Positions 3,574-59,529 are shown, numbered from the stretch's first letter. The stretch is 64,000 bases of DNA from Holosporales bacterium (GCA_947449005.1 CANFPP010000008.1:3884-67883); one strand, 5' to 3'. A program made the numbers and translations. Notes: generated from the sequence alone by a model not told the origin.

Positions 3574-3595
3574 GAGATAACCTATGTTTCTTTGA

Positions 3596-3622
3596 GATCC
3601 TGGGGTTAAGCCCCAGGATGAC
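3596..3622. repeat. REP-like palindrome GATCCTGGGG-TTAA-GCCCCAGGATGAC
   Basis: Hairpin ending in ATGAC like the other REP copies; lies just after the recA stop. Confidence 0.7.
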
Positions 3623-3673
3623 AAAATAGGGAGAAAAATAATCACTGGTTAAATTTATTTTTAGGAAAGTTAA

Positions 3674-6259
3674 ATGCGCACCTTAACAGATATTCGTGGC
3701 ACTTTTATTCAATATTTCAGTGATCAAGATCATCAGGTTGTAAGTTCAAGCCCGTTGGTCCCTCAAAATGATCCAACCTTGCTTTTTACGAATGCAGGAA
3801 TGGTTCAGTTTAAGGATGTCTTTACGGGGCTTGAAAAAAGACCTTATCAACGAGCCGTTACATCGCAAAAATGTTTGAGAGCTGGCGGTAAACACAACGA
3901 TCTTGATAACGTTGGGTATACGGCGCGCCATCATACTTTTTTTGAGATGTTGGGTAACTTTTCATTTGGTGATTATTTTAAAGAGCAAGCAATTTTTAAT
4001 GCCTGGACTTTGATTACTAAAGATTTTGGACTTCCTAAAGATAAACTGCTGGTTACCGTTTATGCAGACGATAATGAAGCTGCAAAATTGTGGGCTAAGA
4101 TTGCTGGATTACCTGAAGACAGAATTATCAGAATTGCGACCTCGGATAATTTTTGGTCGATGGGTGACACGGGCCCTTGTGGTCCTTGTTCTGAAATCTT
4201 TTATGATCATGGCGAGGGAATTGCCGGTGGTCCTCCAGGTTCGCCTGAACAGGATGGCGATCGCTTTATTGAGATCTGGAATCTGGTCTTTATGCAATTT
4301 GAACAGATGGCTGATGGTCGCCGTATTGAATTGCCAAATCCTTCAATTGATACAGGTATGGGGCTGGAGAGAATTGCAGCGGTGCTGCAAGGCGAGCACA
4401 ACAATTATAACGTTGATCTTTTTAAGACATTGATCGCTAATTCTGTTGAATTGACAGGGGCTGGCGCCTCGAACCAACGTCAATCGCACAACGTTATTGC
4501 AGACCATTTACGAGCGTGCTCATTTTTAATTGCTGATGGTGTGCTTCCGTCAAATGAGGGAAGAGGGTATGTCTTAAGACGGATCATGCGTCGTGCTATG
4601 CGTCATGCTCATATTCTTGGAGCGAAAGAGCCGCTGATGTGGCGCTTGGTTGCAACGTTGAGCCAATTGATGGGGCAGGCCTATCCTGAGCTTATTCGAG
4701 CACAGCCTCTTATTGAGCAAACTTTGAAAACAGAAGAAGAAAAATTCCGTCAAACGCTTGATCGTGGATTGAAGCTTTTGAACGAGCAGATATCTACGCT
4801 GCCAGCGGCCAAAGGTTTGCCTGGTGATGTTGCGTTTAAACTTTATGATACGTATGGATTCCCGTTAGATTTAACTCAAGATGTTTTGAGGGAATCCGGG
4901 CGAGTTGTCGATACTGATGGATTCAATGCGGCGATGGAAGTGCAGCGCGCTGCAGCAAGATCTGCCTGGTCAGGCTCAGGAGAGGCAGCGAATGAACAGG
5001 TTTGGTTTGATATTAAAGATAAAGAGGGAAGCACAGAATTTTTAGGGTACCAGACGACAACTGCTGAGGCTGTGATTGTTGAGCTAGTTGATGCTCAAAA
5101 TGCAATTATCACAGAAGCTAACGTTGGTGATAAAGTTCAGATCTTAACGAATCAGACACCTTTCTATGCTGAATCTGGCGGACAGATGGGAGACAGTGGT
5201 CTTTTATTCAGCTCTAATGGAGCAAAAGCTCGCATTACGGACACGGCAAAAAAACTTGGTGCGCTTCATGTTCATGGCGCTGAAGTTCTAGAAGGAGTGA
5301 TACATCAAGGAGATGCAGTTAAGTTATGTGTTGATAAAAATCGCCGTTTACGGATTGCGGCAAATCATTCAGCAACTCACCTTTTGCATGCGGCTTTGCG
5401 GCAGTGTTTAGGAGAGCATGTAACTCAAAAAGGGTCTTTGGTCTCCTCTGATCGCCTCCGGTTTGACTTTACGCACGGAAAAGCTTTAGCGCCAAATGAG
5501 CTTGAGATGATTGAGCGTCTAATCAATCAGCAAATTCAAAATAATAACTTTGTACAGACTCAAGTCATGCCGCCTGAGCAGGCCGTAGGGGCGCTTGCTT
5601 TATTTGGTGAGCGTTATGGTGATGAGGTTCGAGTTGTGAGCATGGGGACCGATGAAAAGGCTTTCTCCAAAGAGCTGTGCGGAGGGACTCACGTTAATCG
5701 TACAGGCGACATTGGATTTCTCAAAATTATTGGGGAGAGCAGTATTGCGTCTGGCGTGCGCCGAATCGAGGCTATAACGGGAGTAGCTGTTTTAGAGTAT
5801 ATTTATCAACTCGAATCAGCGATGGATTTAGAACGCGCAGCTGCTAAGAAGCAAATCCTTGATCTTAATAAACAGGTTAACGACATTCGCAAAAAAGCAA
5901 TGTCTGGCAGTGATGATTTTAACATAGAAAAAGCAGGTGAATATTCTATCGTCTTTAAGAATTTTCAAGATGTTGCCCCTAAAGATCTGAAGCCTTTGGT
6001 GGATCAATTTAAGGAAAAACTTGGCTCTGGCATTATTGTCTTAACCAGCGCAATGGAAGAAAAAATCTCTATAGTTGTTGGGGTTACTAAGGATCTTGAG
6101 CAGAAGATTAGTGCTGTTGATTTGGTTCAAATTGGCGCTGAAATTTTGGGCGGAAAAGGCGGAGGTGGCAGACCAGATTTAGCCCAGGCTGGCGGTGTTA
6201 TCCCTCAAAACGTCGATAAACTTAACGCAGCATTTACTGGTTATTTAAAAGACATTTAG
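3674..6259 (+). CDS. alaS: Alanine--tRNA ligase
   Basis: [28 protein letters not shown], editing HSATH...ELCGGTH, C-terminal [14 protein letters not shown]. Confidence 0.99.
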
Positions 6260-6329
6260 AAAACAGAAAAACACTTGGTTTATCAAGAGTTAACTCTTAT
6301 GTAGTACATTAAGTATTTGATGTTTTATC

Positions 6330-7817
6330 TTGGAGATTACTGTGGGCAGTATCTTTTCTTTTTTCTTTCGTATAGCAATTGCGCTTTTTATTACACTTTC
6401 AGTTACGTTCGCTAGCGATTTAAGAAGTTTGTGGAAAGCTGGATTTTACAAAAGTCACGAGCAACTTGCTGAGGTTTTTAGAAAAGGTGAGCTTACTAAA
6501 GATGCAATATACAGCCTGCATGATAGTAGCGGCAATAATTTAGCGCACAAGATTTTTTACTATCTTAAACAAGCTACCAAAAAAAATCTCAATGATCCCC
6601 GGAGAATCATAGGTAATTATTTGTATGCTATAGAAAAACTACACGAATTATGCGGTGATGGTGTTTTTGAGATCAAAAATGATGAAGGAAAAACTCCTTT
6701 TGCTGCCTCTCCAATAGTATTTAGCAAAGTGTTCGTGGACGCTGGTTTCCTACCCCATCCTAATCTGGTGCATTTACTAATAAGAAATTATGAAGTTTTG
6801 CTAAATACAGATCCCGATTTTTTTCTAATGCCATTTCCAAACAATGTGACCCCTTTAATGGAGTTGGCGTTAAACAATCCAGAGATATATCCGGATGTAG
6901 AAAGAAAATTAACAACATTAGGAAAATCCGTTGATCAAATAGATCGCTGGGGATATACAGCAAAAAAATGGATAGGAAAAAAAGATTTGGGAGCTAATTA
7001 TCTTTTTGCCCTGGACAATTTGAATCATGATCTAAGTTCTGAACCTTTAGATATTAGCTTTTGGGACAAGGTAGAAAGAGAGTCTACCTATGACTTTACA
7101 GATCATCATAATAATAGATATTTTTTTGATGAACTTGCGTTCAATGAAGTCTTGCTGAATCAAGATCGAACGGGTCTTAAAGAAAGCTTCTTGCAACGCA
7201 ATATTACAACACGACAAAATGAAGCCAACCAATTATGGGAAGCTTTTTTCAAAGTTCATGATGACTTAGTGGTGAAGCGTATATCGCGAGTTCATGGCGG
7301 TGATAATGGGTATATAGACAGAATCAAAGGAACTCCTAATGCGATTCGAGTTTTAGGACGCATAAACTCGATTGAAGATTATTTATGTTATCCTGAGGGA
7401 AGAGAAACGGCACAAATTATTAGATCAAAAATTTTATCAACTGGCGGTACGTTTGGCATCAATTTCAAACGCACAGCGACGTCTAATGAAGCTAAAATCA
7501 TGAAAGATAGTGTTGAATCTTTTGTACGCAATGTCGAATCAAATATATGGCTTGATATTGCACAAGAAATTATGAATGCTTTTTTTGTTGCATACTCATT
7601 GCCATTAGAAAAAACACAGCAAGATGCTTTGAATAGTCATCAAGTGAATTGTGTTATTCTTGGTCTTTATTCTGTGTTTAATATCCATCAACGATACTCC
7701 CCAGAAGATCCCTTTTCAGAGATTGATAGATTAGTAGCTGCAAAGAAGGGATGCTCTGCGTCAGCCATAAGATCAAAAGATCGATATGATGGAATCGCTG
7801 AGCACATTGACTCATAA
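6330..7817 (+). CDS. Hypothetical secreted protein with degenerate ankyrin-like repeats (start may be GTG 6342)
   Basis: Signal-like N-terminus (ITLSVTFA-SD); DSSGNNLAH, NDEGKTPF, NNVTPLMELA, DRWGYTA resemble ankyrin G-x-T-P-L-H turns. Confidence 0.55.
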   Translation: MEITVGSIFSFFFRIAIALFITLSVTFASDLRSLWKAGFYKSHEQLAEVFRKGELTKDAIYSLHDSSGNNLAHKIFYYLKQATKKNLNDPRRIIGNYLYAIEKLHELCGDGVFEIKNDEGKTPFAASPIVFSKVFVDAGFLPHPNLVHLLIRNYEVLLNTDPDFFLMPFPNNVTPLMELALNNPEIYPDVERKLTTLGKSVDQIDRWGYTAKKWIGKKDLGANYLFALDNLNHDLSSEPLDISFWDKVERESTYDFTDHHNNRYFFDELAFNEVLLNQDRTGLKESFLQRNITTRQNEANQLWEAFFKVHDDLVVKRISRVHGGDNGYIDRIKGTPNAIRVLGRINSIEDYLCYPEGRETAQIIRSKILSTGGTFGINFKRTATSNEAKIMKDSVESFVRNVESNIWLDIAQEIMNAFFVAYSLPLEKTQQDALNSHQVNCVILGLYSVFNIHQRYSPEDPFSEIDRLVAAKKGCSASAIRSKDRYDGIAEHIDS

Positions 7818-46802: not shown

Positions 46803-47804
46803 TTAAGGTAGCCAGTCCATGTAGAGCAATACGCCAGCTGTTAAGACGAGCCAAGCTAGAGAAAATGGTAAAAATACTTTCCAACCAAGTCGCATTAACT
46901 GATCGTAACGATAGCGTGGTAAGGTTGCTCGAATCCACAGAAATAAGAATAAAAAGAATGAAATTTTGCAAATAAACCAAAAAGGCCCAGGAATCCAAGA
47001 TAAAAATTGAGCCGGTGGCAACCATCCCCCAAAAAAGAGAATGGTGGTAATGCCGCTGAGTAGAATCATATTGGCGTACTCCCCTAGAAAGAAGAGTGCA
47101 AAAGGAAGGGATGAGTATTCCACATGATACCCACCAGCTAATTCTGCCTCTGCTTCTGGAAGATCAAAGGGGGAGCGATTTGCTTCGGCCAAACAAGAAA
47201 TAAAGAAAACCACAAACATTGGAAATAGTGGAATAAAAAACCAATGCTTTTGTTGAGCAAGGACGATGTCGGTCAAATTAAGAGAGCCAGAACAAAGAAG
47301 GACAGAAACGATGGTAAGGCCAATGGAAACTTCATAAGAAATCATCTGGGCTGCTGAACGTAAAGCCCCTAAAAATGCATATTTAGAATTACTCGCCCAT
47401 CCTGCAATTATGATTCCATAGACGCTTAGCGAGGAAATCGCAAATAAATACAAAACACCAACGTTAATGTTGGCTAGCACAGTCCCTTGATCAAAGGGAA
47501 TGACAGCCCACGCTGCTAGGCTGAGACTAAAGGTTAAAATAGGGGCAAAAATGAATAATATTTTGTTGGCGGCATAGGGGATAATTGTTTCTTTGTGGAG
47601 AAGTTTTAGGCCATCTGCAATGGGCTGTAGTAACCCAAAAGGGCCAACGACATTTGGCCCGACGCGAAGTTGCATTGCGGCAATAACTTTTCTTTCTACA
47701 AAAGTTAAATAAGCAACGGCGAGAATTAAGGGAACGACAAGAAGTAAGATTTTTCCAGCAATGAGAAGCACGGTTAATGCGTGGATTAGGAGTGCACTAC
47801 CCAT
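46803..47804 (-). CDS. nuoH: NADH-quinone oxidoreductase subunit H
   Basis: [39 protein letters not shown]. Confidence 0.97.
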
Positions 47805-49848
47805 GATTGATCGCCATTGCTTCAGCTGAACAATTTGCCATTGTTTCAGAATGACGACTAATGGGGTCCGTCATATAAAAATTATTGATAGATGATTTAA
47901 AGGGCATTGCGCTTAATCTTTCTGATGTCTTGCCTTCAAAGTGCTGCCAAGGAGCTGGAATTGTTTCATCTATGTGCGAAAAGGTTGAGCTGATTTTTCC
48001 TAATCGTTCTCTGAGTTGCTCGATTGTGTCAAAAGCCAAAGGGTGACCTAGAACGTCAGAAAGAGCTCTGATAATTTTCCAATCTTCTTTTGCTTGACCG
48101 GGAGGATTTACGGCAAGAACAGCACGCTGTGGTCTGCCTTCAGTATTGACATAAGTGGCATTTTTCTCTGTATAGGCGGCCCCTGGTAAAACAACATCTG
48201 CACGATGTGCACCAGCATCACCATGATGCCCTTGATAGATAACAAATGTATCTGCCAATTGATTCATAGGAATTTCGTCTGCCCCTAAAAGATAAACAAC
48301 TTTTATGTCGCCATTTCTGCAAGCAGATAGAATGTTTGTAATATTAAACCCTTCCGTCTTCGGAACAAATCCAATATCTAAACCACCAACGCGTGCCGCA
48401 GCTGTGTGTAATATATTATATCCATTCCACTCATTGGTAATGAGTCCATATTTTTCTGCAATCCCTTGGCAAAGCTGTATGATATTTATGCTGTCGCGGC
48501 GGTTAAGACCCGCTTGGCCTAAAATCATCATAGGAGATTTTGCAGCCTTTAGATTTTTAACAAAAGGATGTGTGCCGTCATGAATTTCTTTAAGCGTGCG
48601 AGCTTGATCACCAAGAAGATAGTAGGGGTAGTTTAAATCAATTTGTGACCCAATAAGACCAACTGTAAATCCACCCATTAAATAGCGTTTACGCAAACGT
48701 GCATTAATTAAAGGAGCTTCAACACGAGGATTTGAGGCTACAATCAAAGCAAGATCAGCAGATTCAATGCCGGCAATTGTTGTGTTGAAGAGATAATGAC
48801 AACGCGAATGAGTGGGGAGATAAGATCCATCTTGACGACACTCTAAATGAGGAATTCCAAGTGATTCCATTAATTCTTTTAAGGCGAGCATAGCTTCGCA
48901 ATCGATAAGATCGCCTGCAATGGCAGCGATTTCTTGAGGAGAAACAGATTGAATTTTATCGCGGATTGCTACAAAAGCTTCATCCCAACTGCAAGGCTCT
49001 AATTTTCCATTGCGACGCAAATAAGGAGAATCGAGGCGTTGTTTTTTGAGGCCGTCACAGGCAAATCGAGTGCGATCACTGATCCATTCTTCATTGATGT
49101 CTTCATGAAGGCGAGGCAGGATTCGCATCACTTCACGGCCACGACTATCAATGCGTATGTTCGAGCCAACAGCATCCATAACATCAATGCTCTCGGTTTT
49201 TGTTAATTCCCAGCTACGGCCATGAAACGCATAAGGTTTGCTGGTTAAGGCGCCAACAGGGCAAATATCAATCATATTTCCTGAGAGTTCTGATGTGATT
49301 GCCTTTTGCAAATAACTGGTGATCTCAAGATTTTCACCGCGCCCTAAGGTTCCTATTTCTGGCGCACCAGCAATTTCATCAGCAAAGCGAATGCAGCGCG
49401 TACAATGAATACAACGCGTCATGATAGGCTTAATCAAAGGCCCCATATGTTTTTCTTTAACAGCGCGTTTATTCAAATCAAAACGACTTTTGTCAGATCC
49501 ATAGTTGAGCGTAATATCTTGTAAATCGCATTCCCCTGCCTGATCGCAGATAGGGCAATCTAATGGGTGATTAATGAGCAGAAACTCCAAATTTCCTTTA
49601 CGCGCTTTTTCAACCATTGGGGTGTTGGTATGAACAATCATTCCCTCGATTGCAGGCATAGCGCAACTGGCTACGGGCTTTGAACTGTGATCAACTTCAA
49701 CTAAACACATGCGGCAATTTCCGGCAATTGAAAGTCGAGAGTGATAGCAAAACACAGGAACTTCAATATTTAACTGTTCACAGGCTTGTAATATTGTTGT
49801 TCCAGGTTCAACTGTGACAGATGTGTTGTTGATGACGAGTGTAACCAT
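47797..49848 (-). CDS. nuoG: NADH-quinone oxidoreductase subunit G
   Basis: [37 protein letters not shown]. Confidence 0.97.
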
Positions 49849-49863
49849 AATCGCTGTCTTTAC

Positions 49864-51141
49864 TTATAAAATTGTTGCTTTTGATGCAAGGCGAATTCGA
49901 TTCTCAATTTCCCCTCGAAAGTGGCGTATTAACCCTTGAACTGGCCATGCGGCAGCATCTCCTAAGGCACAAATTGTATGGCCTTCAATTTGATGGGTTA
50001 CTTCTTCCAAAAGGTCTATATCGCTTTCTTTCGCGCTACCTTTACTAAGTCTCACCATCATACGCCATATCCAACCAGTTCCTTCTCTGCAGGGCGAGCA
50101 TTGGCCGCAGCTTTCATCCATATAAAACTTACTTAAGCGAGCGATGGCTTTAATGATGTCGGTTGATTTGTCCATGACAATAACACCCGCTGTTCCAAGA
50201 CCTGAGTGTACCTGCTTTAAGCTATCAAAATCCATAAGAACCGTATCACAGATGTTTTTCGGAATTAAAGCCACAGAAGACCCTCCCGGAATGACGGCTT
50301 TCAAATTTTGCCACCCGCCGCGCACACCGCCGGCATATCTATCGATTAATTCACGTAAAGGAATGCCCATCGCTTCTTCAACATTGCAGGGCTTATTAAC
50401 GTGGCCTGAGATACAAAATATTTTTGTACCTGTGTTGTGAGGCGTTCCAATTTTCGTAAACCAAGAAGCGCCACGCCGTAAAATCGTTGGAACGACAGCG
50501 ATGGTTTCAACATTATTGACAGTTGTAGGGCAGCCATATAATCCAATTTGCGCAGGAAATGGTGGTTTTAGACGCGGCATTCCTTTTCGACCCTCTAGGC
50601 TTTCGAGAAGAGCAGATTCTTCACCGCATATATAGGCTCCGGCACCACGGTGAATATAAAGATCAAAATCCCATCCTGATTTCGCGGCATTCTTCCCAAG
50701 CAGTTTCGCCGCATAAGCTTCATCAATTGCAGCTTGTAGGCGTTCTGCTTCTCTGTAGTATTCACCTCGAACATAAATATATCCGACGTGTGCACCAATG
50801 GCAGCGCCTGCAATAAGGCAGCCCTCAATTAGCTTATGGGGCTCATTTCTTAAGATATCGCGATCTTTACAAGTTCCGGGCTCACTTTCGTCTGCATTAA
50901 CAACAAGATACGAGGGTTTATCGCTTTCTTGTGGCATGAATGACCACTTTACACCGGTAGAAAATCCAGCCCCACCGCGACCTCTTAATTCAGATTTTGT
51001 GATCTCTTGAACAATCCATGCTCTGCCTTTGGCGATGATTTCTTTTGTTTTGTCCCAATCTCCACGGGCTTTAGCTTCCTTAAGGGAGTCAGGATTTTCT
51101 CCGTAAAGATTGGTGAAAATGCGATCTCGATTATGAAGCAT
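49864..51141 (-). CDS. nuoF: NADH-quinone oxidoreductase subunit F
   Basis: [37 protein letters not shown]. Confidence 0.98.
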
Positions 51142-51748
51142 TGGATTTTTTTGATTTAGAGTTGAATAATTCTAATTGAGTTATTGGGGGAGTTACTATC
51201 GGTTCTGACCCATGGCGGCCAATTGTTGATCCAGGTGTTGTTGGGGTGCCGCTTGCTAAATTCTCCAGTAAATAGGTTACTGTTTGAGGGGTTAGATCTT
51301 CATAAAAATCATCATTGATTTGAACGACAGGTGCGTTAACGCAGGCTCCTAAACACTCAACCTCTATAAGGCTGAACTGTGCATCGTTGGTGACTTGTCC
51401 TTTGCAGATGTCTAATTGCCGCTCGCAAGCAGAAAGAATTTCCTCTGCTCCTCTGAGAGCGCAGGGAGTTGTTCCGCAAACTTGTACGTGATATTTCCCG
51501 ACCGGCTTTAGATTAAACATGGTGTAAAATGAGGCAACTTCAAGAGCGCGAATTGTCGGCATTCCCAGCATAAGAGCAACGTATTCAATAGCCTGATGCG
51601 GAAGCCATCCTCCGCATTGGCGCTGAGCTAGATCAAGTAAAGGCAATATTGCGCTTTGCTGCCGTCCTTTCGGATAGCGCTCAATAAATATTTTAGCTTT
51701 TTCCTGGTTTTCAGGTGTAAAAATAAAAGTGTGTGGCAAAGCTAGCAA
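51131..51748 (-). CDS. nuoE: NADH-quinone oxidoreductase subunit E
   Basis: ASFYTMF, CGTTPC, ECLGAC.NAP 2Fe-2S motifs. Confidence 0.96.
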
Positions 51749-51798
51749 TGTTTTAAATTCTACCCGTCAATCAAAACTTATATTTTTCATCATAATCA

Positions 51799-51822
51799 TT
51801 AGACCTGCGATCGCAAGTCTAA
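51799..51822. promoter_or_regulatory. 24-bp palindrome, candidate LuxR-type operator
   Basis: TTAGACCTGCGATCGCAAGTCTAA, one mismatched pair; lies between divergent nuoE and luxR. Confidence 0.5.
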
Positions 51823-51916
51823 AGTTTAAAAATCAAAAGTTTCTGCTTGTGAAAGCTTTGTCATTATGGGATATGTCTCTCAAGGTTAAGACTTCATAAA
51901 CCTACGAGAAATGTAG

Positions 51917-52753
51917 ATGTCGACATTTGAAGAAAGTGAAAACCTCTCGGCTTTAAATTATAGCCTGGATACAAAAGAGAAGCTTAACTCTATCTCTGAG
52001 GTCTTTCTTACCCCATTTGGCTTAACAACTTTTGGATATAAAAGAGTTTATAATGATGGGCACTATATGTTTCTGTCAACCAACGACCAGTGGGCTCAAT
52101 ATCACTATCAAAATATCCATGACCATGGAGCTTTCTTTCAAACGGCTATGAACAACACCTGTACTCAAGATTTTTATAGAGTACAGTGGCCAATTAATCC
52201 AAATGACCATTTCTTAGAGTCTTTAAATCACTTTGGAATGTGGCATGGGATAAATTTTTATAGAAGAGGGCCAGATTATTTAGAGTTATGGACATTTTCC
52301 ACGAGCGTGGATCAAGCAAATGTTTCTCCTAATTATATCAATACATTAAAATATTTCGAAGAGTTCATTGCTTATTTCAACAGCAAAGCTCAAGAAATTA
52401 TTAATACTAGAGAGTCTGGCAAGCTTGCTAAATTTAAAGATACTGTAATTTTTGGCACGAATGACGCCTTATTAAATAATGGCAATACTTATAAGTTTTT
52501 AAATATTTGCGATAAAATGAAAATCGATAAGCTTATCATCAAAGGCATAACGGAAAATGTGTCTTTGACAAAGCGAGAAACTGACTGTGGAAAATTGTTG
52601 AGTGCTGGTAGAGGCACGAAAGAGATTGCTAAAGCTTTGGACCTTTCTCCAAGAACAGTGGAGTTCTACATCAATTCAATTAAGGAAAAAACGGGATTGC
52701 ATTCAAGATCTCAAATTAGAGATGCGATTCAAAATGCAGTTAAGATGTTCTAG
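51917..52753 (+). CDS. LuxR-family transcriptional regulator (N-terminal ligand-binding-like domain, C-terminal HTH)
   Basis: LTKRETDC..L..GRGTKEIAKALDLSPRTVEFYINSIKEK. Confidence 0.88.
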   Translation: MSTFEESENLSALNYSLDTKEKLNSISEVFLTPFGLTTFGYKRVYNDGHYMFLSTNDQWAQYHYQNIHDHGAFFQTAMNNTCTQDFYRVQWPINPNDHFLESLNHFGMWHGINFYRRGPDYLELWTFSTSVDQANVSPNYINTLKYFEEFIAYFNSKAQEIINTRESGKLAKFKDTVIFGTNDALLNNGNTYKFLNICDKMKIDKLIIKGITENVSLTKRETDCGKLLSAGRGTKEIAKALDLSPRTVEFYINSIKEKTGLHSRSQIRDAIQNAVKMF

Positions 52754-52782
52754 CTTATATCAAATAGGATAAGGGGTTTTCT

Positions 52783-54051
52783 ATGAAAAGAATTTTAACA
52801 GCCTGCGCAATTGGCAATATTATAGAATGGTATGAATTTATGATTTTTGGCTATTTTGCCACGATCATTGGTCAGCTATTCTTTCCAGCGTCATCATCTC
52901 TCGGTTCTCTATTTAAAGCATTTGGTGTATTTGCCGTAGGTATTTTGGTAAGGCCTTTAGGGGGAATATTATTTGGCCATATTGGCGATAAATATGGCAG
53001 AAAAAAAGCATTGCTTCTATCGCTGTACTTAATGTCGATCCCAACTGTAATGATTGGTTTCTTGCCAGGTTATGACAGTATTGGAATGGCAGCCCCTATA
53101 GCGCTTATTTTAATTCGTATTTTGCAAGGCCTATCTATGGGCGGTGAGTATGCGGGGACAATGATCTACTTAATTGAAGATACAAATCCTAAAAAGCGAG
53201 GGTTTTATGGAAGCGTTGCGGCCCTAAGCTTAGTTTTGGGTATGGCTTTGGGTTCATTGGTTTCAACAGTGCTGCACGTCACTTTGATGCCTGAACAGCT
53301 GGCGAGCTGGGGCTGGAGAATCCCTTTTATTATTAGTATTGGAGGGTTTCTTTGGGGGCTTTACATCAGGTCCAAATTAGAAGATTCAGACGTCTTTACT
53401 GAATTAAAATTAAAAAATAATTTATCCAAATTGCCAATAAAAGAAACGTTTCAAAAGCATTCAAAACAAATTTTTTCTACAGTTTTTATGCAGTGTTTTC
53501 TTGGTGTTGGCATGTACACTATGACAATATTTTATGCAAATTTTGCAAAAGAACACTTTGGATCTTCTGATCCTCTGGTCTGCCTTATGCTCAATACACC
53601 TGGCGTTATTGCGATTGGAATCGCTGCTGTAATATCTGGTAAATTATCAGATATTTATGGTCGAAAAAACGTCTTACTTATCTCATCTATTTGTACCTGT
53701 GTTGCAGCTTATTTCTTAATACCTTTGATACACGATAAGCAGGCTGGTTCATTTTTTGTGCATCATATAATTTTATCACTTTTGACGGGTAGCTTTTTAG
53801 GCCCGATACCGTCCTTTTTGGCGGAGTGTTTCCCAGCAAAAATAAGATATACCTGCGTTGCCTTGAGTAATAACTTAAGCATGGGGATTTTTGGGGGGAC
53901 AGCACCGATGATGATTACCTACCTAATCAGCCGATTCCAAGATAGTGCGATGCCGAATTACTACTTAATGGCAAGTGCCTTAATCAGTGCTTTTGGTCTC
54001 TATTTTATGAGTGATAAAAACTTTGGAGAAAGAGATGAAGATGCTAATTAA
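52783..54051 (+). CDS. MFS transporter, metabolite:H+ symporter (ProP-like)
   Basis: GNIIEWYEF, RPLGG..FGHIGDKYGRK, QGLSMGGE, WGWRIPF, FGGTAP. Confidence 0.92.
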   Translation: MKRILTACAIGNIIEWYEFMIFGYFATIIGQLFFPASSSLGSLFKAFGVFAVGILVRPLGGILFGHIGDKYGRKKALLLSLYLMSIPTVMIGFLPGYDSIGMAAPIALILIRILQGLSMGGEYAGTMIYLIEDTNPKKRGFYGSVAALSLVLGMALGSLVSTVLHVTLMPEQLASWGWRIPFIISIGGFLWGLYIRSKLEDSDVFTELKLKNNLSKLPIKETFQKHSKQIFSTVFMQCFLGVGMYTMTIFYANFAKEHFGSSDPLVCLMLNTPGVIAIGIAAVISGKLSDIYGRKNVLLISSICTCVAAYFLIPLIHDKQAGSFFVHHIILSLLTGSFLGPIPSFLAECFPAKIRYTCVALSNNLSMGIFGGTAPMMITYLISRFQDSAMPNYYLMASALISAFGLYFMSDKNFGERDEDAN

Positions 54052-54436
54052 TAATGAAAATATTGCTGATCAAATGATTGTGGCGAGAGACCTTTTGAAA
54101 GCAGAAATAGCTGAAAGACAGCTTTCAAATCAGTATCAAAATGCATTAATCAAAAACTTTTCTTCGCATCCTTTGCTAAGCAATTTTCTGAGTAAAAATG
54201 TGGGATCTCTTGATATTCAGTGGGTTGGACTAAAACAAAGGGAGAGTGTTGCAATTCATGAGCATGCTGTTGATACAATGATGGTTGCGTGTAAGGGAAA
54301 TTGCAGATTAACTGGTGAAATAGAGTCTATTTTCTCTGAGGGAGATGCTATCATTGTTCCAAAATATGTGAAGCATGGATTAACACAAGATAATGATGAA
54401 TTATTCTGGGGCCTTGCTTTTAGATTTCACTCTTAA
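54035..54436 (+). CDS. Cupin-domain protein
   Basis: IHEHAVD metal motif 1 and GDAIIVP...HG motif 2; GGAG RBS before ATG 54035. Confidence 0.8.
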   Translation: MKMLINNENIADQMIVARDLLKAEIAERQLSNQYQNALIKNFSSHPLLSNFLSKNVGSLDIQWVGLKQRESVAIHEHAVDTMMVACKGNCRLTGEIESIFSEGDAIIVPKYVKHGLTQDNDELFWGLAFRFHS

Positions 54437-54448
54437 AGGGTTATGTGA

Positions 54449-55720
54449 ATGCTTTCAATTGGACTTATGAGTGGCACCTCAATGGATGGTATTGATGCGG
54501 CACTTCTTGAAACAGATGGATCGTCTAACAGCATTCATGATCTTGGTCACACAACGATTGATTATGATTCTGAGTCAAAGATGCTGTTTAAATCGGCGGA
54601 ATATTCAATTCGAAAATTCCAAGGAAATATGCAGGAAGCACAAGTTGCATATCTAGAATCTTTCCGTGAATATCTTCAGAATGAGCTTAAATTCTCGAAT
54701 CCAGATAATACAATTAAATCTCTTACAGCTTATCTTCATGGAGATGAGGGGGCGCCCTTGCGTCTTGATGATGTGATTTTGCATTCCACAAAACTTCATG
54801 TTGCAAGCGTTAAAAAACTTTTGTCAGAAACTGGTCGTAAGTCTTCTGATATTGATGTTGTTGGCTATCATGGGCAGACAATGTATCACCAGCCATCACG
54901 TAAAATTTCGATAATTGTTGGAGATGGACAAGTCTTGGCAGATCAAGTCGGAATCGTCGTTGTGAATGATTTTCGCAGCCAAGATGTCGCGGCAGGTGGT
55001 CAAGGGGCACCATTTGCTCCCCTATATCATCATGCTTTAGCGGTGAGAGATAATAAAATACCAACAGCCATTGTTAATTGCGGTGGTATTGCAAACGTTA
55101 CCTTTGTTCCAAGTGCAAATGAAAATGATCTCATCGCCTTTGATACAGGGGCAGGAAATGGCCTTATTGATCGCCTTGTAAGGCAGCGCACAAGCGGTCA
55201 AGAGTTCATGGACAAAGATGGACAGTATGGAGAAAAAGGCAAAATTCATCAGGGTGCGCTAAAGGCACTATATGAAAAATCTATCACCAAAGAGGGTGAG
55301 AATTATTTATTAATGCCACCGCCAAAATCTCTGGATATTGGTGATATGTGCCTTGTGCCAGAGCTTGATTCTTTAAATTTAGAGGACGCTTGCGCAACCC
55401 TTGAAGAATTTACAGCCGCAACCATTGTGGATAGCTTGAACTGGTTTAAGGGAGATTTGCCACAGCAATGGATTCTTGCAGGTGGGGGGTGGAAAAACCC
55501 GGTAATCCGCCAAAGTCTTGAGAGAAATCTTCAGATAAGACTTAACAAAAAGGTAGCTATCCAAACTGCCGATGAGGCGGGATGGAATGGTCAAGCGATG
55601 GAGGCACAAATCTTTGCCTACCTAGCGGTAAGAAGTTTGCAGGGCAAGCCTTTAAGCATGCCCAATACGACGCGCGTTCCGAGACCTATGTCTGGGGGGA
55701 CAGTTTACCGTCCTGTTTGA
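54449..55720 (+). CDS. anmK: Anhydro-N-acetylmuramic acid kinase
   Basis: GLMSGTSMDGID, GYHGQT, DFR..DVAAGGQGAP, N.GGIAN, PPPKSLD, EAQIFAYLA. Confidence 0.95.
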   Translation: MLSIGLMSGTSMDGIDAALLETDGSSNSIHDLGHTTIDYDSESKMLFKSAEYSIRKFQGNMQEAQVAYLESFREYLQNELKFSNPDNTIKSLTAYLHGDEGAPLRLDDVILHSTKLHVASVKKLLSETGRKSSDIDVVGYHGQTMYHQPSRKISIIVGDGQVLADQVGIVVVNDFRSQDVAAGGQGAPFAPLYHHALAVRDNKIPTAIVNCGGIANVTFVPSANENDLIAFDTGAGNGLIDRLVRQRTSGQEFMDKDGQYGEKGKIHQGALKALYEKSITKEGENYLLMPPPKSLDIGDMCLVPELDSLNLEDACATLEEFTAATIVDSLNWFKGDLPQQWILAGGGWKNPVIRQSLERNLQIRLNKKVAIQTADEAGWNGQAMEAQIFAYLAVRSLQGKPLSMPNTTRVPRPMSGGTVYRPV

Positions 55721-55797
55721 TGAAATATATTACGCAAAACTTAACAACCATGAAAAACCTGACCACGATTTTCTTTTTTTGTGCCTAAGTAGCTCAT

Positions 55798-56715
55798 CTA
55801 TATCTTCTTGGTAGAGGCTGCTCTGTACACGTTGGCGGAAGTCATTTGAGAGTACATTTTTGCTTTCAGCCTAGCGCTATTATAGCATACTATGCCTCCT
55901 GTATTATCTGGCCTTACGCCTATATGAACTCCAAATAATGTATTGTTGTTAATGAAAATAGGCGCTCCACTGGAACCTGGAAATGTTGCAGCATCGTGTT
56001 CGTTTGCCTTTAAAATTTTACCTGTATTCTGCCGTTGATCTGCAGTTCCTCCAGGGTAATGCCACAGTGTAAAATTTTGGTTTATTGCACTTAGCTGATC
56101 ATCTCTTCTTAAAAAACTTAGCCTGTGTTTAAACAATTCACTAACATAAAACTCGTTATGTGTTTCATATGTTCCTTCAAATATACAGACATCTTTTGAA
56201 TCCAAGTAATATACAGCATCAATAGTAATTTTTGCACAGAAAGAAACACTGCTTTCAGTTTCTGATAATCTTGCATTTGCTAAAAAAAACTCGCCGTACT
56301 TTACGTTGTTGTCTCGTGTTATAAAATTATGCCTGGCAGCAATTCCCCTCATTCTATTCCCTATTTTTTCAAAGATAGTGCCTGTGCCAACACCAATCTC
56401 GTTTGTTAGTCTACCAACCAAGCTATTAACTGTGCTTTGTGCAAAAGAACAAGGCGGGAAAATATTGTCAAAACTTTCATCGTCACATTCATAATCAACC
56501 TTAACTCTTCCAAGCGAGCCTAATGCATTAAAAACTTTTACACTGGACGAACTGGTAGATTTAAACTTTATTACATCATGTGAAAAATCTACCCGTTCTA
56601 AGGTTCTATAAACAGGAACGTAAGAAGGGCCAAATTCTCGAAACTCTCTCACTGCAGCCTGCCCATCGGATTGTATACACAAGCACGATAGGGATAGTAA
56701 TAATAGAGTTCGCAT
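55798..56715 (-). CDS. Secreted trypsin-like serine protease
   Basis: Signal peptide; GTG, AARHN (His), DVCI (Asp), TFPGSSGAPI (Ser), GVH. Confidence 0.7.
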   Translation of the reverse strand: MRTLLLLSLSCLCIQSDGQAAVREFREFGPSYVPVYRTLERVDFSHDVIKFKSTSSSSVKVFNALGSLGRVKVDYECDDESFDNIFPPCSFAQSTVNSLVGRLTNEIGVGTGTIFEKIGNRMRGIAARHNFITRDNNVKYGEFFLANARLSETESSVSFCAKITIDAVYYLDSKDVCIFEGTYETHNEFYVSELFKHRLSFLRRDDQLSAINQNFTLWHYPGGTADQRQNTGKILKANEHDAATFPGSSGAPIFINNNTLFGVHIGVRPDNTGGIVCYNSARLKAKMYSQMTSANVYRAASTKKI

Positions 56716-56730
56716 TTTTGATCTCCTTAA
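56630..56730 (-). repeat. Shared leader (RBS plus first 29 codons), copy 1; partner at 58823-58923
   Basis: 101-nt ungapped match with 11 mismatches (hand count). Confidence 0.9.
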
Positions 56731-56836
56731 TCTTTCTCAATAATATGCCAAAGATACAAAAATTAAACAAAATGTAAGTTGATTTTCATCAAGACTTTTA
56801 GATTGATAGGACTACAGAAAATCTACTATTCACATA

Positions 56837-57003
56837 GCCGATGCTGCAGTGTGGAATGGCCAGGCGATGGAGGCGCAAATCTTTGCTTACTTAGCGGGGT
56901 GCGAAGCTTGCAGGGCAAATCCTTAAGCATGCCGAATACCACGCGTGTTCCAAGGGCGTTGTCAGGGGGAACGGTTTATCGGCTTTTTCAATCTTTAAAA
57001 TAA
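56837..57003 (+). pseudogene. Second, diverged copy of the anmK 3' end with a 2-nt insertion
   Basis: ADAAVWNGQAMEAQIFAYLA(fs)VRSLQGKSLSMPNTTRVPRALSGGTVYR versus anmK ADEAGWNGQAMEAQIFAYLAVRSLQGKPLSMPNTTRVPRPMSGGTVYR. Confidence 0.9.
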
Positions 57004-57035
57004 ACTACTCGGATCTTTGTTAAATTTCTGCTTCC

Positions 57036-57061
57036 TCCATTGTCATTTCAAGTGGGAATCC
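57036..57061. repeat. Internally deleted REP remnant
   Basis: TCCATTGTCATTTCAAGTGGGAATCC versus TCCATTGTCATTCCCGCGTAGGCGGGAATCC at 9010. Confidence 0.55.
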
Positions 57062-57226
57062 AAAAAACTAACAATATTGTGTTAAAAATTTGAGAAGAAA
57101 CAGTACGGATTTTTATAATGTTTTATTCTTTTCTAAAATCTCTTTAATTCGCTTATATTCTGCGTCAGAATAATATTCTTTTGATGTTGCTGTGTTGTGC
57201 AATTCTCGAAGAACTTCGTTAATTAC

Positions 57227-58237
57227 TTAGAATTCATGGTCGTATAAATACCCTTCTTTCCATAGAAGCTTATGTATATTAATTTCTGCGAGATTGTGTT
57301 GAGCATCAAGTAAGTGACAGGGCTGTTGGGGATAATAACCCCAACCGCGAGGTGCTTTGTTCTTTAGTTGATATTCAGGCAAAGGTTTTCCATGCTCATC
57401 TAACATGGAGCCTAAATCACTAATGGAATGGCTTTGTGTTGTAGGATCAATGTACGGAATATAGTATTGAGTTCCACTTCCTGGTAAATACTCGTAAAAA
57501 TCGCTCCTAGCTTTATTTAGTTGTATTGCTGAATTTTCTAAAGTTCTACGATCTTGCGGTTCTATTAATCTTGGAAAAACATGATTGGGTAAATTAAACT
57601 GTGTATCAAATGCAATTTTTGGAGCTACAAGACCATAGCTACAAACCCACTCCTGATCTTTGTCAATAGCTACTACAGCTATGCCACTATATGCATGCCA
57701 TAAATTTAAAATCGCCAATTTTTTTCGTGCAGAAGATAGAGTAGGGCATAACATAAATTCAATAATAGGAGAAAACCATTGCAAAGAAAAATGTCCATTC
57801 TGGCTAGCTAAATCTCTAACAGTATTGCCTGGATAAAGTGAGACTAGAATCTTTCTAGTTTCAGTTTTTGCGTCAAGTAAAACTTTATGGCCATTGGCAA
57901 AACTGTGCCTTAGTTCAGAAACTAACAAAGGAGGAGGGTTTTTTTTACCAACTTTTAAAGAGTGTTTTTTTGCATTCGTTGATCTATTAATTCTTTCGAA
58001 TAACTCATCGTCGAATTGAGTATAAGATGAGCTAATAGAGCTTAATTTATAACCATTTCCCAAGTCTCTTAGTCTGTGATCTGAATGTAACTTTGTGTGC
58101 ATTTGTAAGTATTCATAGCTTATTCTTTTTGATGGAAATACGATATCCCTAAAAAGTTCGCCGAGATGACGGGTGCTTGCGTAGCTAAAATTAATATTGC
58201 AAAATATAAAAACAAATAAAAATAGAACTATGTTCAC
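57227..58237 (-). CDS. Hypothetical secreted protein
   Basis: GAGGA RBS, GTG start, signal peptide FSYA-STRHLGEL; no recognisable domain. Confidence 0.7.
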   Translation of the reverse strand: MNIVLFLFVFIFCNINFSYASTRHLGELFRDIVFPSKRISYEYLQMHTKLHSDHRLRDLGNGYKLSSISSSYTQFDDELFERINRSTNAKKHSLKVGKKNPPPLLVSELRHSFANGHKVLLDAKTETRKILVSLYPGNTVRDLASQNGHFSLQWFSPIIEFMLCPTLSSARKKLAILNLWHAYSGIAVVAIDKDQEWVCSYGLVAPKIAFDTQFNLPNHVFPRLIEPQDRRTLENSAIQLNKARSDFYEYLPGSGTQYYIPYIDPTTQSHSISDLGSMLDEHGKPLPEYQLKNKAPRGWGYYPQQPCHLLDAQHNLAEINIHKLLWKEGYLYDHEF

Positions 58238-58266
58238 AAAACTATCCTCTGATTTATTGTTGTGGA

Positions 58267-58908
58267 TTAATATTCTGTTGTTATGTTGTGACTATAAAGA
58301 CCTGATGAAATGTTTTTTTCTTGCTCAAATCTTTCAAGTATGAAAGCTAGCTTTTTTATGGGGGTTTCTAGTTTTTTTAATACAGCTGCGTTTTCTGTTT
58401 TTTTCAATTCATCTAATTTCCAGCTCCAAGAGCCCAATAAACTATCGAGATCTGATAGGTAGCCTATTTCTGGAATATCATGTAAGCCTTTTATTGTTTC
58501 GCAAACTTGGCCACTTAGATACGCTAAGCTTGAATTGACGCTATAAATCTCTGTATTGCAGTTATTCAAAAACATGTTTATTTCATCATCTAAAGAAGGA
58601 GATATTGTTGAAAATCTTCTTATTTGTTGTTGAGGTAACTGATGTCTTGCACAATGACGATTTAATAAGATTTTTATAGGTAAGTAAGATTGTATATTTG
58701 TTTTAACTGGACTAGTTAACATTGCGTTTGATCGAAGTTGTTGTTCGAAGTTTTGAAAGGTAGAAAGAGTAGCAGAAACTGGTTTATTCATGCGGTGGAC
58801 TATACGCTTGGTTGTGGAAAATCCTAATTCTCCAAGCTCTCTCATTGCAGCCTGTCCCTCTGATTGTATGCACAAGCATGATAGGGAAAGTAATAATAGT
58901 GTTCGCAT
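58267..58908 (-). CDS. Hypothetical secreted protein sharing its leader with the protease
   Basis: MRTLLLLSLSCLCIQSEGQAAMRELGELG, then a basic/hydroxylated segment and an acidic helical C-terminus. Confidence 0.75.
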   Translation of the reverse strand: MRTLLLLSLSCLCIQSEGQAAMRELGELGFSTTKRIVHRMNKPVSATLSTFQNFEQQLRSNAMLTSPVKTNIQSYLPIKILLNRHCARHQLPQQQIRRFSTISPSLDDEINMFLNNCNTEIYSVNSSLAYLSGQVCETIKGLHDIPEIGYLSDLDSLLGSWSWKLDELKKTENAAVLKKLETPIKKLAFILERFEQEKNISSGLYSHNITTEY

Positions 58909-58923
58909 TTTTGATCTCCTTAA
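58823..58923 (-). repeat. Shared leader, copy 2
   Basis: About 89% identical to 56630-56730. Confidence 0.9.
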
Positions 58924-59300
58924 AAATGTTAATGGTTTATTCTTTTGTAAATCTCGAATTTCATGCTCTTTTAGATAAAGTTGGACTGTCAGGAATAAGT
59001 CTGTCTTTTAATCCAAAAACGCACTACTAGCATAAACTCATCGTAAAATAAATTTTAAAGAAGAAGCGTAAAAAAAACATTAATCCAAACTCCGTTAACA
59101 TTGTGGGCTCTTAGCAGCACATCCATGATTTTAAAATTTGAGAACCATACTCAACTAGCTCCGGCTCTAGTAACAATATCGGTCGTTGATCGAAAATTGT
59201 ATGGTGTTAAATCAAATTCTAAAATCGTGTAACGTTGATCGCATGATGATCTAGGTCGCGCTAATAAGCCAGAACAAAGCTCTCTGGGGCGAGTGCAAAA

Positions 59301-59333
59301 TTTACGGAATCAACCCCGTAAAAAATACGGAAT
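59301..59333. promoter_or_regulatory. Candidate operator (inverted plus direct repeat)
   Basis: TTTACGG-N8-CCGTAAA, with TACGGAAT repeated 23 bp apart. Confidence 0.4.
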
Positions 59334-59529
59334 ATGATAAGAAAATGCTCTTTTTGATTGAAAAATTTGCCAACTTTCGCATTATCTTTATCAAAAAAAC
59401 ACTGTATTAAGGTGTATGTGTTTTATTCAAAACTCATAAAACGTGAGCTTTTAGAAAACTACTTTATAGGTCCAGGCTTGTTCTCTTGCACATTTGATGC
59501 TGAAAACTAAACCATAATAAAGAATCTGA

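Follow-up and report, generated by a model that had tools for sequence, protein, structure and literature searches.

Here, we describe a locus at which the 3′ end of a housekeeping gene, anmK, is present twice, with different genes for secreted proteins behind each copy. It lies in a 64,000-nt stretch of DNA from a Holosporales bacterium (GCA_947449005.1 CANFPP010000008.1:3884-67883), hereafter the window, from whose first letter positions are counted unless another contig is named. The window belongs to contig C8 in a metagenome bin of 1.9 Mb in 74 contigs (91% complete, 0.2% contamination). The intact anmK (54449-55720, plus strand) encodes anhydro-N-acetylmuramic acid kinase of 423 aa and matches the AnmK family profile PF03702 over its full length (E 2.3e-67; profile positions 36-365 of 367). 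Its last ~54 codons (55557-55717, plus strand) constitute the first tail copy, as recognised from the direct repeat families D2 and D3 and from alignment. Convergent to anmK, and 77 nt behind its end, follows a minus-strand gene (55798-56715) for a 305-aa secreted protein, the first cargo, which homolog and profile evidence mark as a probable serine protease resembling V8/glutamyl endopeptidase. The ribosome-binding site and codons 1-29 of this gene (MRTLLLLSLSCLCIQSDGQAA...) form the first copy of a leader (56630-56730, minus strand) found by repeat comparison. A unique junction of 95 nt (56731-56825), at which we would place an illegitimate joint, connects the upstream region of the protease gene to the second tail; it is contiguous in a Logan contig of run X1 and has no similarity to the region upstream of the second leader. 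The second tail (56826-57003, plus strand) is an orphan, i.e., a frameshifted pseudogene fragment identified by repeat and alignment that corresponds to about codons 370-423 of anmK. Behind it lie two minus-strand genes. One encodes a 336-aa secreted protein (57227-58237), the frame of which continues past the stop to 57113 (57113-58237 in all, as judged by the ortholog P0124). The other encodes a 213-aa secreted protein (58267-58908) that is assigned to the leader family by leader homology, and at its head stands the second leader copy (58823-58923, minus strand), recognised as a 101-nt repeat. The array at anmK comprises these two units only. Its coordinates and layout had been described in a first-pass annotation of the sequence and proved correct on recomputation.

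The two tails are strongly diverged. Positions 56826-56988 align to 55557-55717 as two blocks free of gaps, 81% and 77% identical (~78% overall), between which a 2-nt insertion in a G run (56896-56899) breaks the frame of the orphan; the longest identical run shared by the tails is 11 nt. No third copy was found in the whole 1.9-Mb assembly, in which the tail occurs at these two places only. Over 51 codons, the tails differ at 33 nt, with 20 synonymous-only codons and 8 residue changes (43/51 residues identical). An earlier count over 48 codons had arrived at ~29 differing nt, 20 synonymous-only codons and 5 amino-acid changes; its figure for synonymous-only codons stands, and the other two are replaced by the present ones. 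The Nei-Gojobori method applied to the 51 codons yields 24.5 synonymous (Sd) and 8.5 non-synonymous (Nd) differences, a synonymous divergence (dS) of ~1.66, a non-synonymous divergence (dN) of 0.077 and a dN/dS of 0.046. An automatic alignment of 54 codons gives a dN/dS of 0.068 (binomial P 7e-9 versus neutrality and 1e-4 versus a dN/dS of 0.5, the expectation for a local duplication with one copy selected and the other drifting). Across both alignments, dS is ~1.3-1.7 and dN 0.077-0.09. At a dN/dS of 0.046-0.068, local duplication followed by neutral decay is therefore rejected, and the earlier claim that both tails evolved as functional anmK is borne out, with a dN/dS of ~0.05. This pattern of substitutions indicates that the tails diverged almost entirely while each was part of a working anmK. 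Since dN is this small, the orphan would have been a pseudogene only briefly relative to the age of the alleles, and its time as a pseudogene would be capped at a few per cent of the tail-to-tail path.

Low dN/dS between the copies would also be expected if the orphan were the remnant of an old tandem anmK paralog that lost the first 87% of its length when the protease gene arrived. However, a second full anmK was present in 0/36 relatives with a match, in which extra matches were pieces of the same gene. Furthermore, the genome is small (1.9 Mb), and uvrA, tmk and the other loci described below would all have to share this history, which makes such a remnant very improbable. A diversity-generating retroelement was rejected as well: all substitution types occur between the tails (C>T 10, A>G 7, G>A 6, T>C 5), with no adenine bias, and no reverse transcriptase family was found among the neighbouring open reading frames (ORFs) tested.

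An array of this kind might be mimicked by an assembly chimera of two co-occurring strains that carry different cargo behind anmK. The genome is a metagenome bin, several of its contig sets are ~90% identical to one another, and low-depth relatives are present in other sequencing runs. Nevertheless, in the Logan assembly of X1, a lake-water run that contains the DNA of the window in full and is probably the source sample, one 39-kb contig spans positions 53000-60500 and crosses the array with 0 differences and no joints. Logan represents a second assembler (k=31) and not independent reads, as its reads are probably those of the source sample. The at most 11 consecutive identical bases between the tails are too few to link paths in a de Bruijn graph, and a link via the 22-nt identical run of the leaders would bypass the orphan instead of placing it. 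The ~90% identical contig sets are conjugative elements, and the contamination estimate is 0.2%. Taken together, we consider a chimera highly unlikely. In another study (X3), a contig of 191 nt runs across the anmK stop into the protease gene and differs at 8 positions. Pieces from runs X2 and X4 (few, 151-252 nt) were set aside and nothing was drawn from them; the X2 pieces show 0-1 differences in the cargo genes and ~9% in the 5′ part of anmK at a depth of 2, at which X2 could be two organisms.

The closest AnmK proteins in public protein data (P0001-P0005) are 83-98% identical to the protein encoded here. The motifs WNGQ and LSMPNTTRVP occur in both tails and in all five of these proteins and are absent from AnmK relatives at ≤67% identity; both tails thus belong to one genus-level clade, as would donor and recipient. 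More distant sources provided the DNA for comparison. Among 41 genomes of the same order, none belongs to the same family or genus and the best AnmK identity is 60-61%, while scans for anmK relatives returned 11 metagenome loci (best 63%) and 13 loci on genome contigs (best 58%). Apart from contig C7 of this genome itself, no homologs of the cargo genes were found in 31 fetched loci of relatives.

We regard it as likely that the orphan tail is a recombination scar, left when DNA of a related lineage was integrated through homology at one end and through an illegitimate joint at the other. The incoming DNA, from the same genus-level clade, would have carried its own anmK 3′ end and the genes behind it. 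Because the tails are only ~78% identical and share no identical run beyond 11 nt, a crossover within the tail is unlikely, and the homologous exchange would have taken place elsewhere. In the version that we favour, this exchange occurred in or upstream of anmK and the protease cassette is the newcomer. The incoming DNA would then have ended shortly beyond the protease gene and the promoter of this gene, and this end would have been joined inside the resident anmK, ~55 codons before the resident stop. The outcome would be a complete anmK with a foreign tail, the protease gene, the stranded resident tail and the older two-gene cassette. No enzyme encoded by an element would be needed, as only products with a complete anmK would survive selection. 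With its truncation, the 336-aa gene agrees with the favoured version, in which the displaced cassette decays, and is a weak pointer as a single mutation. What we infer here comprises the one-sided homologous mechanism, its direction and the vehicle, which may have been conjugation or transformation.

If the anmK locus arose in this way, the same process might have acted elsewhere in the genome. The first-pass annotation had suggested looking for other duplicated 3′ ends of housekeeping genes that flank orphan genes for secreted proteins, and at least seven further such loci exist. A comparison of the whole bin with itself turned up more places at which the end of a long ORF reappears shortly downstream, on the same strand and outside ORFs. 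For each of the 1474 ORFs with at least 120 aa, both terminal 300-nt segments were then compared with the 6 kb on either side, and copies outside any ORF were counted as orphans. Direct orphan copies of the last 300 nt were found 16 times downstream and once upstream, those of the first 300 nt 7 times upstream and 3 times downstream. An asymmetry of this kind would be expected from insertions that keep the gene intact. The clear loci are anmK and at least seven further housekeeping genes (eight in all). Three have highly similar repeats, namely an SDF symporter (C3 30957-34560; 145-nt repeat, 98.6% identity with 2 differences), a beta-lactamase-fold protein (C5 39154-42649; 84-nt repeat, 98.8% identity with 1 difference) and MutS (C9 7348-11588; 75-nt repeat, 94.7% identity). 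The others are UvrA (C5 13498-17264; 235-nt repeat, 87.7% identity), thymidylate kinase (Tmk; C11 40617-42327; 240-nt repeat, 85.8% identity), a thiolase (C26 22043-25594; 110-nt repeat, 88% identity) and a phosphopantetheinyl transferase (PPTase; C47 5997-9963; 80-nt repeat, 83.8% identity). The orphan lies 0.7-3.2 kb downstream of the working tail, and signal-peptide ORFans stand between the two in 6/7 loci besides anmK, the content of the C47 insert being unclear. In the same number of these seven loci, homology stops at or near the stop codon; in thiolase it does so ~19 codons earlier. The uvrA and tmk tails have a dN/dS of 0.056 (P 2e-5 versus 0.5) and 0.108 (P 8e-4 versus 0.5), respectively, and the differences at the other orphan-tail loci are too few for a verdict on dN/dS.

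The proteins of the eight inserts have no similarity to one another, and no DNA motif is common to the eight, with a single match of 15 nt (E 0.042). At the curated Pfam cut-off, nine of ten cargo ORFs remain without a family and the tenth belongs to TraB/PrgY/gumN; no recombinase family was found by Pfam in any of the ten. By a crude test, 7/10 cargo ORFs are signal-peptide-like versus 294/1474 ORFs genome-wide (P 8e-4), and by eye the remaining three also start with a hydrophobic stretch. The first ORF past the orphan is likewise signal-peptide-like at 5/8 clear loci (at a ninth, weaker locus on C19 it is not), which suggests that cassettes were stacked there as at anmK. On the scar reading, the same process would thus stand behind at least seven other housekeeping genes, mostly adding signal-peptide ORFans, and gene ends would be landing pads at which accessory genes for secreted proteins pile up. 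The general form of this proposal, i.e., that the last 25-80 codons of housekeeping genes serve as landing pads where exchanged DNA stacks secreted-protein genes with no dedicated recombinase, is put forward tentatively and may well not hold; the conjugative elements of this genome are possible carriers in it. A mirror footprint, with orphan 5′ ends upstream of an intact gene, was observed at C11 7134-7199, C16 27779-27841, C16 37158-37204 and C1 10348-10438.

The geometry of these loci, with an intact gene end, cargo and a displaced end, is also that of attL and attR sites, and homology ends near the stop at 7/8 loci (earlier at thiolase). Small site-specific integrative cassettes that bring a replacement gene end as attachment site and rely on a recombinase encoded elsewhere would account for both features. 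However, no integrase or transposase family was found in the 8 neighbouring ORFs tested by Pfam at anmK (47797-63941) or in the ten cargo ORFs, although a recombinase acting in trans is conceivable. Eight different target genes with repeats of 75-240 nt and no common motif, together with anmK tails that lack an identical core (longest run 11 nt), are difficult to reconcile with site-specific integration, and we judge such cassettes unlikely. The families identified by Pfam in the tested neighbours are nuoE/F/G, LuxR-type, MFS, cupin, NB-ARC/TPR (tetratricopeptide repeat) and PfkB, in agreement with the earlier statement that no integrase or transposase is visible. An integron was likewise rejected, as no integrase was found.

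A further alternative is in-situ insertion accompanied by a long target duplication, after which the working anmK was overwritten by a diverged allele via homologous recombination. Insertions that lack mobility genes and are flanked by target duplications of 46-423 bp are known in several bacteria according to the cases presented in PMC2853133, and two loci of the present genome have nearly identical repeats. At anmK, however, the orphan is little decayed (dN 0.077-0.09) even though the alleles differ by a dS >1. The later donor would thus have to be distant and yet already possess the same recent protease insertion, and the same coincidence would be required at uvrA and tmk. We therefore see this sequence of events as fairly unlikely at anmK and continue to prefer a scar of one-sided homologous exchange.

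Several observations weigh against the scar reading or limit its reach. The mirror version, in which the orphan tail and the 336-aa and 213-aa genes are the incoming DNA, anchored beyond the 213-aa gene, fits equally well, such that either cassette may be the newcomer. Compared residue by residue with its five closest relatives, AnmK shows no clear mosaic breakpoint; P0001 differs from it at 8 of the first 210 residues and at 1 of the last 207, a contrast that amounts to no more than a hint. The relatives whose DNA was compared reach at most 63% AnmK identity, and all reads behind the assembly probably derive from one sample. The signal-peptide test is crude and home-made. The repeats of the SDF symporter (C3) and the beta-lactamase-fold protein (C5) are nearly identical and could equally be in-situ long target duplications or products of Campbell-type integration; the loci need not share one mechanism. 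Finally, G028, a same-order relative of another family (800 kb, 586 ORFs), has four orphans downstream of the intact tail, two of them convincing, and one orphan in each of the other three direct-orientation classes. The footprint is therefore not peculiar to the genome studied here, and its rate here, ~10 clear cases in 1.9 Mb, may not be out of the ordinary. At the two G028 loci (G028:C1 ~204040-209362 and 572127-574500), the orphan tails lie 1-2 kb downstream of the intact gene, and one insert has a 639-aa ORF; the ORF that follows this insert looks by eye like an IS110-type gene.

Of the cargo at anmK, the 305-aa protein has a single homolog among 5.8 billion proteins, P0122 (36% identical), for which precomputed domains are PF13365 (Trypsin_2) and PF05579 (Peptidase_S32). 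In the two-sequence alignment with P0122, His129, Asp175 and Ser248 are invariant. A profile of the pair matches the V8/glutamyl endopeptidase 1wcz_A in the C-terminal half only (E 6.6e-6), and Pfam Trypsin_2 matches the 305-aa protein itself below cut-off (E 0.02). The AlphaFold2 model is unusable (predicted local distance difference test, pLDDT, 30). From its sequence, the 305-aa protein is a probable secreted serine protease of the V8-like type.

The 336-aa protein belongs to a small family with 21 representatives at E ≤1e-3 among 1.84 billion sequences; two paralogs lie on C7, and the family alignment has 13 invariant columns, including His117, Tyr183 and Gln257. Its ortholog P0124 is 72% identical and extends beyond the in-frame stop that cuts the gene here; 37 further codons (57113-57229 region) still match P0124, so that the copy here is truncated and possibly decaying. 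The AlphaFold2 model of the protein (pLDDT 62) found Tne2 (6b12_A) in a Foldseek search (E 5.5e-3, probability 0.98). VIA-align superimposed it on Tne2 with a Z of 8.5 (root-mean-square deviation 3.3, 116/119 residues), on Rhs1-CT with a Z of 6.8, on Tse6 with 5.4 and on fungal NADases with 4.3-4.4, where unrelated rows score ~4 or less. A PDB profile search with the family returned nothing below E 0.2 and no sequence-level link to structures of the Tne2/Tse6 type, and an atlas search gave scores of ≤0.81, which are leads only. The predicted fold thus resembles the NAD(P)+ glycohydrolase toxin domains of the Tne2/Tse6 type. The 213-aa protein matched no Pfam or NCBIfam family; over its N-terminal 56 aa, it shares 59% identity with a 208-aa paralog on C7. 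Outside the 29-codon leader, the 305-aa protein has no similarity to the 213-aa and 336-aa proteins. Some of the cargo therefore looks toxin- or effector-like, as judged from the V8-like protease sequence and the modelled NADase-like fold.

The leader repeat (56630-56730 and 58823-58923) is 89% identical over 101 nt and consists of 15 nt with the ribosome-binding site and the first 29 codons of the 305-aa and 213-aa ORFs. The leader pair is less diverged than the tails (dS ~0.42-0.50, dN/dS 0.04-0.19 over 29 codons), a pattern by which the leaders appear to be under selection and not freshly converted. The leader is the N-terminus of a four-member paralog family in this genome, and two more copies, on C7, head ORFs of 149 and 208 aa. 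When residues 1-45 of the 213-aa protein served as query, only the 213-aa and 305-aa proteins themselves were recovered, among 4 candidates. The first-pass annotation had described the leader as shared by both units, which might make it a conserved right-hand anchor of the cassettes. Such a role is not borne out here: the leader is seen only in paralogs of this genome, and no second repeat like it occurs at the other seven orphan-tail loci. We thus interpret the leader as a feature of the cargo family, and its possible role as a recombination anchor is without support. On C7, each of two cassettes (1002-2556 and 5032-6712) consists of a leader-family ORF (149 or 208 aa) and, behind it, a paralog of the 336-aa protein with 331 or 332 aa; a LuxR-type gene adjoins each cassette, and an exact 46-nt repeat (3588-3633 and 6773-6818) lies downstream of both.

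The anmK locus is bracketed by two genes with LuxR-type helix-turn-helix (HTH) domains, at 51917-52753 and 59530-62010. The former encodes 278 aa, with an N-terminal domain that could be assigned to no family, and has paralogs beside the C7 cassettes. The latter, a regulator-like plus-strand gene that is divergent from and adjoins the second cargo, has its LuxR HTH (PF00196, E 8.8e-12) fused to an NB-ARC NTPase (PF00931, E 7.4e-13), and a TPR ORF follows it. These two genes may be regulators of the secreted-protein cassettes. Promoter-like sites (13 versus 12.6 expected) and terminator-like sites (2 versus 2.3) occur at chance level, and an Rfam scan of 54000-60000 gave no matches.

Vehicles for the transfer of such DNA are possibly encoded in the bin itself. 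At least three contigs, which are 88-91% identical to one another, carry a conjugative type IV secretion system and a MobA/MobL relaxase. Contigs C25, C35, C31 and C65 (also C50/C51/C70 and C68/C69) form sets that are 88-94% identical over 1.6-10 kb, and C25 encodes VirB4-, VirB6-, VirB9-, VirB10- and VirB11-type conjugation proteins together with a 1505-aa MobA/MobL relaxase-helicase. The bin therefore contains several diverged copies of a conjugative element. ComEC and DprA are intact, as in 10/14 control genomes. A repeat of ~500 nt, 80-95% identical, was observed at the ends of C1, C3, C4, C13, C19, C27, C33, C42, C43 and C62 and at C8 1-292; it probably represents an element present in many copies, at which the assembly broke.

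Where accessory genes come in with neither transposase nor integrase, they are difficult to spot, and how they arrived can usually not be seen. If our interpretation is true, stranded tails record earlier alleles and the order of arrival: their synonymous-only divergence would be evidence of exchange between diverged lineages, and the low decay of an orphan would cap the age that the event can have. It further suggests that this uncultured lake bacterium, whose genome is small, built up much of its secreted repertoire in this manner. Should it also be widespread, tail displacement would represent an under-described general route of accessory-gene gain that is readable from a single genome, and a scan for orphan tails with low dN/dS would provide a cheap flag for recently gained genes in metagenome-assembled genomes. 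A literature search for displaced, truncated 3′ ends at housekeeping genes found nothing; this search was limited and is no proof that such ends are unpublished.

Among known systems, genomic islands enter the 3′ ends of tRNA, tmRNA and protein genes via tyrosine recombinases, with the element supplying a replacement end. As in these islands, the gene end is present twice here, with the displaced copy beyond the insert. Unlike in these islands, no integrase was found, the repeats have no common core, the targets are many and the inserts measure only 0.7-3.2 kb.

Long target duplication offers a second comparison. As covered by Furuta, Abe and Kobayashi in 2010 (PMC2853133), restriction-modification genes have inserted without mobility genes between direct repeats that greatly exceed the target duplications of transposons in length; some of these repeats overlap gene 3′ ends, and the cases come mostly from naturally competent species. 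Direct repeats of >30 bp that flank an insert in which no mobility gene was found are common to those cases and to the loci described here. The former, however, have near-identical repeats, a genome with the empty site and restriction-modification cargo, whereas the cargo here consists of secreted ORFans and the repeats of three loci diverged under purifying selection (dN/dS 0.05-0.11). Homology-facilitated illegitimate recombination in transformation and conjugation, which in the accounts of PMC5361080 and PMC3240628 integrates foreign DNA by one homologous anchor and one illegitimate joint, would be compatible with an upstream homologous exchange and with 56826 as the joint. It is a process defined in the laboratory, and we propose it here from its footprint alone.

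The closest parallel in form is provided by the arrays of polymorphic toxins in Rhs, contact-dependent inhibition (CDI) and type VI secretion system (T6SS) loci. In these arrays, as described by Jackson et al. 2009 (PMC2935791) and Kirchberger et al. 2017 (PMC5361080), an incoming conserved portion with new downstream content takes over the gene and the old 3′ portion with its companions is pushed downstream as an orphan. The same accounts know of no recombinase for this displacement and propose either homology-facilitated illegitimate recombination or a circular intermediate followed by homologous recombination. The anmK locus likewise has a working gene followed on the same strand by a truncated copy of its own 3′ region, with different content behind each tail, i.e., the protease gene versus the 336-aa and 213-aa genes. 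In contrast to the toxin arrays, where a variable toxin domain and the cognate immunity gene form the displaced tip, the displaced part here is the constant C-terminus of AnmK, the variable content consists of separate convergent or co-oriented genes for secreted proteins, and there are two units only. The analogy with orphan-module arrays, which the first-pass annotation had drawn, is apt as a description of how the locus works. It would extend a model argued mainly for polymorphic-toxin and T6SS loci to the ends of housekeeping genes, and what is new here is that the footprint recurs genome-wide, with secreted and partly toxin-like cargo.

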